From contig JAZNPK010000032.1 of NCBI GenBank assembly GCA_045589595.1, positions 53,475-117,474 of the forward strand: 64,000 nt of DNA. Reading direction: 5' to 3'. This stretch comes from Victivallales bacterium. GTDB taxonomy: Bacteria > Verrucomicrobiota > Lentisphaeria > Victivallales > UBA1829. A program made the position numbers and the translations under genes. Of the stretch, positions 23,084 through 23,257 are shown piece after piece (within the stretch, counting starts at the first letter, position 1; each line of letters opens with the position of its first letter). The notes below the pieces were generated by a model. The model had not been told where the DNA came from. It searched no databases and was given only the letters and a program-made list of their open reading frames with translations.

Positions 23084-23257
23084 GTCGCCGTCACACACAC
23101 ACACGACCGGCGCAGGATCCGCCCCGCCCGCGCCGCGAGCGGGGCGTGTTCGTTTTCAGCGGGCGGCGGGCGGCACCGTCCGCCGCGCTGAAAACGGCAC
23201 AGCCGGGCGGTTTGACCGCCCGGCGATCCTGCGCCGGTGTGTGTGGCGGCGGCTGAC
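23084..23257 (+). other. GC-rich branched stem-loop element: three hairpins enclosed by a long closing stem (X1)
   Basis: Closing stem: CCGGCGCAGGATC (23107-23119) pairs with GATCCTGCGCCGG (23225-23237), extended by a (CA)n/(TG)n duplex. Inner hairpins:
- CGCCCCGC..GCGGGGCG (23120-23146)
- GTTTTCAGCG..CGCTGAAAAC (23152-23195)
- GCCGGGCGG-tttga-CCGCCCGGC (23202-23224)

A T6 run follows at 23259-23264. Confidence 0.6.

Follow-up and report, generated by a model that had tools for sequence, protein, structure and literature searches.

The stretch of DNA analysed here (64 kb, 53% GC; "the window") contains a gene for a Gfo/Idh/MocA oxidoreductase, followed on the same strand by one for an ankyrin-repeat protein (Table 1). 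Between the two, beginning 20 nt past the oxidoreductase stop codon, lies the element under study, here called X1 (23083-23254): a long closing stem around three GC-rich hairpins, with a T6 run after it. A second such element, X2, begins 38 nt past the stop codon of a beta-lactamase-family gene, with convergent genes on either side; on the minus strand, the tract that abuts its closing stem supplies the final codons and TAA stop of a convergent BNR_2 gene (48369-49439; called as a gene in L028, and supported by Pfam). To judge by the names given to its homologues, the organism is an uncultured member of Lentisphaerota, probably of Victivallales; the species is found in many gut-type metagenome assemblies.

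Two other features of the X1 intergenic region can be dealt with briefly. A TTGACA hexamer (23289-23294) lies between X1 and the ankyrin-repeat gene, 25 nt past the T-run; a promoter scan listed no full promoter there. On the minus strand, a 143-aa antisense ORF (22897-23328) runs across X1, and several public assemblies (L003, L177, L180, and others) annotate it as a gene. As a coding sequence it was rejected: it has no Pfam match, and the CA run within it varies in 2-nt steps between strains, a change that would move the ORF out of frame. The ORF has the look of an artefact of annotating a GC-rich palindrome.

Table 1. Features of the X1 and X2 loci, and copies of repeat family Y, in window coordinates
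Feature	Position	Strand	Remarks
Oxidoreductase gene (Gfo/Idh/MocA), upstream of X1	21867-23063	+	398 aa; ORF list; Pfam PF01408, PF02894, PF22725 on identical called gene
X1 closing stem, outer 5' arm GGTCGCCGTCACACAC	23083-23098	+	Pairs with 23239-23254, three G.U pairs (RNAfold pair list)
X1 unpaired surplus (CA)n	23099-23105	+	5' side only; internal loop between stem halves
X1 closing stem, inner 5' arm ACCGGCGCAGGATC	23106-23119	+	14-bp perfect duplex with 23225-23238; inverted repeat I15, 100% complementary
X1 hairpin 1	23121-23145	+	7 + 3 bp, one C/A mismatch, loop GCC
X1 hairpin 2	23146-23200	+	Base GTGT(T)CGTT/AACGGCAC, homologous to base of X2 hairpin 2; distal 20 bp X1-specific
X1 hairpin 3, CCGGGCGGT-TTG-ACCGCCCGG	23202-23224	+	Homologous to hairpin 3 in X2 and E
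X1 closing stem, 3' arms	23225-23254	+	Inner GATCCTGCGCCGGT, outer GTGTGTGGCGGCGGCT
T6 run after X1	23259-23264	+	T7 in two haplotypes
Ankyrin-repeat protein gene, downstream of X1	23361-25466	+	Same strand as oxidoreductase
Beta-lactamase-family protein gene, upstream of X2	47147-48214	+	
X2	48253-48367	+	Closing stem 48253-48274/48345-48367; hairpin 1 48275-48296; hairpin 2 48297-48325; hairpin 3 48327-48344
Tract ATTATTTTT, abutting X2 closing stem	48368-48376	+	Read from sequence
Family Y, copy of four tandem hairpins	9318-9448	+	
Family Y, copy of four tandem hairpins	20578-20698	+	
Family Y, copy of four tandem hairpins	53322-53442	-	
Family Y, copy of four tandem hairpins	58948-59062	+	
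Family Y, copy of four tandem hairpins	59169-59288	+	

Folding bears out most of what had been proposed for X1 at first sight. RNAfold gives positions 23064-23275 (212 nt) a minimum free energy (MFE) of -145.5 kcal/mol; 200 dinucleotide shuffles average -96.3 ± 4.7 (z = -10.47), and none of the 200 is as stable. The fold is thus thermodynamically favoured, and the centroid structure has the same architecture as the MFE structure: three hairpins inside a closing stem, the four-way junction of about 175 nt that the original prediction described, with the T6 run where it had been placed. The closing stem needs a small correction. Its (CA)n/(TG)n duplex is there (23086-23100 with 23237-23251, 93% complementary; inverted repeat I16), while the perfect segment, given as 13 bp, has 14. 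The unpaired linker before hairpin 3 is a single A. The gap from the stem to the T6 run is 4 nt for the MFE structure; haplotype h3 takes up an alternative register, GUCAGCCGUC/GGCGGCUGAC, that narrows it to 1 nt.

X2 has the same architecture, as had also been predicted (-108.5 kcal/mol, z = -8.99), with 49 Watson-Crick and no G.U pairs; in most strains its hairpin 2 is a perfect GTGCCGTTGCGC/GCGCAACGGCAC duplex. AUUAUUUUU comes 0-1 nt past its closing stem, the last base of which is 48367. When the entire window was folded in sliding segments of 120 nt (mean -33.6 kcal/mol, sd 8.0), the two most stable segments in the 64 kb, at -92.7 and -84.4 kcal/mol, proved to be those of the two elements, which are also the sole islands of at least 74% GC at such an energy density. 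These are not chance outliers. Both elements fold alike on opposite strands, at -143.0 vs. -141.2 kcal/mol for X1 and -105.0 vs. -107.2 for X2. Given this, and the lack of G.U pairs in X2, both are near-perfect DNA palindromes, for which an origin at the DNA level fits as well as an RNA role.

The two elements were at first thought to have entirely different stem sequences, so that their likeness would be covariation at the level of whole helices. This has to be replaced by ordinary sequence homology, with differences matched on both arms. A 44-nt block that runs from the base of hairpin 2 through hairpin 3 into the closing 3' arm aligns with a score of 38 (shuffles 20.7 ± 3.5), and the whole elements, with cheap gap extension, align with a score of 106 (shuffles 64 ± 6.6, z about 6.4), over a span that opens with the GGCAG preceding the stem and closes with the TTTTTC(G)AGG following it. 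X1 scores lower against the reverse complement of X2 (87.75). X1 and X2 are therefore alignable homologues along their full length, provided that both are read in the same orientation. The exceptions are hairpin 1 and the hairpin-2 tip, which are unrelated in the two and not alignable. In the helices that can be read side by side, the differences found are matched substitutions or indels on both arms: in the inner closing stem, an A-U pair against a C-G pair, plus one extra A-U pair; further out in the closing stem, GG against CC(U), matched on the other arm; in hairpin 2, a paired indel UUCA/UGAA; and in hairpin 3, a paired indel CGG/CCG.

Two further shared details had been claimed. One, a common sequence before hairpin 3, is real (AACGGCACAGC occurs exactly twice, at 23193 and 48318), though not as a linker: AACGGCAC is the 3' arm of the hairpin-2 base, with GTGTTCGTT as its partner in X1 and GTGCCGTT in most X2 strains. 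The other, a TTTGA loop in both third hairpins, fails, since the loop is TTTGA (or TTG) in X1 and TTGC in X2, with only GGTTTG in common.

The slot after the oxidoreductase gene is filled differently in relatives. No homologues of the protein fall between 99% and 79% identity. At 79% (P0003; L038/L039), at about 76-77% with upstream synteny retained (P0008; L043-L048), and at about 70% (P0009; L049), the gene is followed by a plain hairpin and T7. P0005 (L040) has no terminator, the next gene beginning 49 nt on, and on the short contigs that carry P0002 and P0007 no comparable structure is present downstream of the oxidoreductase gene. Synteny downstream of the gene is lost in the relatives. 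In two of the contigs carrying P0008 (L045, at 3725-4040, and L046), the plain terminator is followed by a GC-rich stretch of about 315 nt, full of GCCGCCGGGAGGGCGGGGAGG-type repeats, and the downstream gene in these strains is a different one.

P0006 (L041/L042) is followed by another four-way junction, element E. All 13 bp of its closing stem (CGGGGCGCGGCTC/GAGCCGCGCCCCG) recur unchanged in the inner closing stem of X2, from which the X1 inner stem differs by paired changes. Of the three hairpins of E, the first is GC-rich, the middle one has the textbook A7-stem-T6 form of a bidirectional terminator, and the third aligns with hairpin 3 of X2. The fold has a z of -10.8. E aligns with X2 at z = 6.0 and more weakly with X1, at about 3; similarly, a covariance model for which only X2 strain variants were used picks up E with an E-value of about 4e-4, X1 only marginally, and nothing else in 199 kb of related DNA. 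The search for further homologues of the X1/X2 pair, suggested at the outset, thus yielded one and none beyond it.

The oxidoreductases P0003, P0005, and P0006 are 89-93% identical to one another, and E is found in one of the three genomes. With plain or no terminators in the other two, E arose recently, and independently of X1. More generally, since other relatives have an ordinary terminator, none at all, or at least nothing of this kind, the X element is a lineage-specific occupant of a terminator slot: a family appearing at terminator positions, and not an ancient conserved 3' UTR of the oxidoreductase gene. X1, X2, and E are all oriented along their upstream genes. For X2, the nearest relatives of the upstream gene product are at most 58% identical.

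Within the species, X1 is present in all 21 strain assemblies, as ten haplotypes, each with the T-run. The length of the (CA)n run changes by multiples of 2 nt, between 4 nt below and 2 nt above that in the window; the other changes are one extra TG, T6 or T7, variation in the loops of hairpins 1 and 3, one A insertion, and three stem substitutions. Stem changes are mostly wobble-compatible on the plus strand, and one haplotype turns a U.G into a C-G pair. Purifying selection on the stems within the species was considered and rejected: a deficit of polymorphism relative to the 5' flank (p = 0.004) is gone when the stems (3/148) are set against third codon positions of the oxidoreductase gene (17/399; p = 0.31), so it is the flank that is unusually variable, and the stems are not shown to be constrained. 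The spacer between stop codon and X1 (23064-23082) has four segregating sites among the 21 assemblies, far above either third codon positions or stems.

X2 is likewise present in all eight sequences that span its site. Three of ten contigs (L035, L036, and L037) end inside it. One of these, L035 (4068-4210), departs into unrelated sequence, not found in the window, right after GCGCGGCTC, at the closing-stem junction; either an insertion or a chimeric assembly induced by the palindrome could account for this.

A strand signal may be read from the mispairs. Across X1, X2, E, and their variants, non-Watson-Crick stem positions comprise 10 G.U on the plus strand (five in X1, two in E, and three strain variants) against 2 A/C, a bias with a one-sided binomial p of about 0.02 (calculated by hand). 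It hints that the plus-strand RNA matters.

Searches for known families and for more copies returned little. Rfam 15 has no match in the window at gathering thresholds; in permissive mode the best scores are 18-19 bits against thresholds of 50-112, none above about a third of the gathering score. The match to a known family that would have told against the original prediction was thus not found. BLAST against phages and plasmids and a scan of viral contigs gave nothing relevant. Scanning a genome collection with the X1/X2 core (AACGGCACAGCN{0,4}GCGGTTTG) gave 17 matches, about the number estimated for chance, in unrelated taxa and none with the fold; the single Victivallaceae match (L026) is not similar in architecture. 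As a metagenome search pattern, the X2/E closing-stem pair is not specific: the matches, at least 120, lie almost all on contigs of 60-77% GC, none with a closed junction, with mostly ordinary folding energy (a few are long single hairpins) and covariance-model scores of at most 21 bits. A further 18 kb beside the window holds no more copies. About 82 kb of this genome has thus yielded two, and the ~100 kb of DNA from relatives that was scanned by folding has yielded one; the known family has three members. Retron, integron attC, and tRNA-like readings were also tried and set aside: gene tables and Pfam scans across most of the window show no reverse transcriptase or integrase family, sizes and motifs do not fit, and Rfam has nothing.

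The window also holds other repeats, of which family Y is more clear-cut as a repeat family than the X elements. One of the four hairpins in each Y copy is conserved (CAAGGGCACAGCCCTTG). In the others, the bases (GCAGAA/TTCTGC and GTCA/TGAC) are conserved and the distal stems are variable and perfectly complementary; by RNAalifold over the five copies, 9 of 37 pairs are changed on both sides. A relationship between X and Y was considered from a sequence common to both (GGCACAGCC), and rejected because the similarity is not significant. The intergenic region 20492-20785, with one Y copy, is 294 nt long in the window and 409, 623, 627, and 696 nt in other strains (L001-L004; gene tables of strains with an identical neighbouring protein), so Y-type repeats, in contrast to X1 and X2, probably grow and shrink from strain to strain. 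The X elements show the same pattern as Y in their hairpin 2, a conserved base and a variable, perfectly paired tip. This recurrence suggests that the genome may have a general process that builds or remodels intergenic hairpins, perhaps a more rewarding subject than X1 itself.

Among the remaining repeats are a 72-nt tandem repeat in four copies (59310-59581) and a 39-nt dispersed family in seven, including 20745-20783, 58899-58937, and 59120-59158 (families D4 and D5); both have a GGCRCACWCTGTGYG hairpin adjoining Y copies. Repeats with a 15-nt period (58094-58286) and glutamine-codon-rich CAG/CAA repeats (28851-29338; families D1-D3) are inside long ORFs, and are probably low-complexity protein segments.

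What, then, might X1 do? Of the functions first suggested for it (an elaborate intrinsic terminator, a structured sRNA or 3'-UTR element, or a mobile palindromic unit), the terminator is the best supported. With moderate confidence, X1 may be taken as a compound (branched) Rho-independent terminator, belonging to a small, lineage-restricted family of GC-rich, near-perfectly self-complementary modules that would occupy the slot after genes in an uncultured Victivallales-like (Lentisphaerota) lineage. This rests on the terminator slot, shortly past the stop codon; the geometry of the T-run, a U-tract following the GC-rich stem directly in X2 (0-1 nt) and within 4 or 1 nt in X1; the plain hairpin and T7 at the same gene in three relatives; and the sense orientation of all three elements. 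In such a scheme the three hairpins would fold successively as RNA polymerase left the oxidoreductase gene, and the long closing stem would zip up beside the U-tract once its 3' arm emerged, releasing the transcript as at an ordinary intrinsic terminator. The stable four-way structure would stay at the 3' end of the mRNA, and should also impede 3'-to-5' exonucleases.

X1 and X2 do depart from the usual form. In place of a single short hairpin (about 5-14 bp, with a loop of 3-8 nt) there is a terminal helix of 22-30 bp that encloses three hairpins, and the terminator reading leaves the branching itself unexplained, as one hairpin would suffice. Element E has no U-tract directly after its closing stem; if its internal hairpin 2 is what terminates, the four-way junction would never form in the RNA. 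The genome also uses ordinary terminators, to judge from a textbook bidirectional one (A-tract, 26-nt arms, T-tract; inverted repeat I1) between convergent genes at 36712-36764, in the same style as the middle hairpin of E.

The closest described counterparts would be hairpin-cluster or compound terminators (Gupta and Pal, 2021, PMC8355165; also the tandem-hairpin classes of WebGeSTer DB, PMC3013805). Hairpin clusters near stop codons have been reported as termination units in many bacteria (PMC8355165); like the X elements, they have several GC-rich hairpins within 80 nt of a stop codon with a T-run after them, between transcription units or convergent genes. Their hairpins are arranged in series, however, while those of the X elements sit inside a closing stem of 22-30 bp, making a four-way junction of 115-172 nt, and the X units, unlike the clusters, are homologous between loci.

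That homology, between loci and between species, implies that the modules spread, perhaps by duplication, recombination, or transposition of a palindromic unit whose arms would be kept complementary by selection or by template switching, and it brings in the main rival to a terminator: REP/REPIN- or MITE-like mobility. The X elements would then be selfish, non-autonomous palindromic DNA, acting as DNA (as a hairpin or cruciform recognised by a transposase) and spreading between intergenic sites, preferably at or around terminators, with any effect on termination incidental. We consider this unlikely. It would account for copies that follow unrelated genes, one of them from another species yet having the same 13 bp in its closing stem (a find that gives the earlier suggestion of a mobile unit real, if thin, support), and for the recent arrival of E in one of three genomes with 89-93% identical oxidoreductases. 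Equal folding of both strands and almost purely Watson-Crick stems would also be expected, and the breaks of three assemblies inside X2, like the presence in the same window of the multi-copy family Y, with an intergenic site of 294 to 696 nt among strains, would fit. The copies found are few, however, and their strong divergence argues against a recent burst. No target-site duplication was seen on reading the sequence at the ends of X1, X2, or E; gene tables and Pfam scans across most of the window include no transposase-, RAYT-, integrase-, or reverse-transcriptase-like family; presence is not polymorphic, with no empty sites among strains at either X1 or X2; and the core scan of the genome collection is at chance level.

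REP elements are 3' mRNA stabilisers in E. coli. REP/BIME elements and REPINs (Bertels and Rainey, 2011, PMC3116915) are, like the X elements, GC-rich extragenic palindromes found after genes, often clustered and with co-varying arms, and REPs can end or stabilise transcripts. They are, however, 20-40-nt single hairpins (imperfect palindromes, or doublets of these in one hairpin) that are linked to a RAYT gene and number in the tens to hundreds per genome, all closely alike; the X unit is 115-172 nt long, with four helices round a junction, and is present as two diverged copies in about 82 kb, with no RAYT among the window genes for which there are Pfam results. Among MITE-like palindromes, the Correia elements of Neisseria and the ERIC elements of enterobacteria are intergenic and act as terminators. 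These resemble the X elements in length (100-170 nt), in having terminal inverted repeats that pair as a long stem, and in their position in 3' UTRs, and the terminal 13 bp shared by X2 and E would be in keeping with them. Against this, the X elements have no evident target-site duplication, no empty sites among strains, and an apparently low copy number, and their interior consists of autonomous hairpins, where MITE-like elements form one long imperfect palindrome.

As another possibility, and quite an unlikely one, the X elements could be by-products of replication: template switching (quasipalindrome correction) at terminators, with copying of one arm from the other, would create, lengthen, and perfect hairpins, so that branches pile up neutrally and the only function is that of the original terminator. 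This mechanism is documented for making and repairing RNA hairpins (Monttinen and Loytynoja, 2022, PMC8794818), leaving perfect stems and multi-base symmetric differences between arms of the kind seen here. The near-perfect stems fit well, as do the symmetric changes between X1 and X2 (UUCA/UGAA, CGG/CCG, and the closing-stem A-U pair), the conserved hairpin bases beneath distal stems that are variable yet perfectly paired (likewise in family Y), and the roughly neutral polymorphism of the stems. What was described, however, is a mutational process and not an element family, and alone it yields no dispersed homologous copies, leaving unexplained the homology between unrelated loci and two species. 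G.U pairs also persist, with a plus-strand bias, where arm copying would erase them, and no direct footprint of an event has been reconstructed.

It is conceivable, if very unlikely, that Victivallales have an as yet undescribed class of dispersed elements built as four-way junctions, of which X1, X2, and E would be members. Their conserved 3' module (hairpin 3, closing stem, and T-rich tail) would be recognised by a dedicated protein or recombination machinery, the elements would install themselves at terminators or replace them, and synthesis templated by one arm would keep the variable hairpins perfectly paired; with family Y included, they would amount to a new hairpin-based genome parasite or regulator.

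The least supported reading, a dedicated structured RNA that does more than terminate transcription (for instance an sRNA derived from the 3' UTR, or a four-way-junction RNA that binds protein), could draw on an architecture kept in three members despite sequence divergence, a conserved orientation to the upstream gene, a conserved 3' module (hairpin 3, closing arm, T-rich tail), and mismatches biased to plus-strand G.U, but it is highly improbable given that Rfam families reach at most about a third of their gathering scores, that hairpins 1 and 2 are not conserved and the only conserved unpaired nucleotides are the G-G-U-U-U loop start, that near relatives lack the element at the orthologous sites, and that the stems by far exceed those of typical functional RNAs in length and perfection, in a palindrome that folds equally well on the opposite strand.

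X1 is of modest interest, and most likely an elaborate transcription stop signal. With three members, and a function deduced from position, the family opens no new field, but it does have practical consequences, in the spurious 143-aa ORF that several assemblies annotate across X1 and in the contigs that break inside X2. It also bears on how perfect RNA stems come about, whether by selection or by arm copying at the DNA level. If the X elements are terminators, then in a little-studied, uncultured gut lineage plain terminators would have been replaced by larger, branched palindromes that are related to one another between loci and between species.
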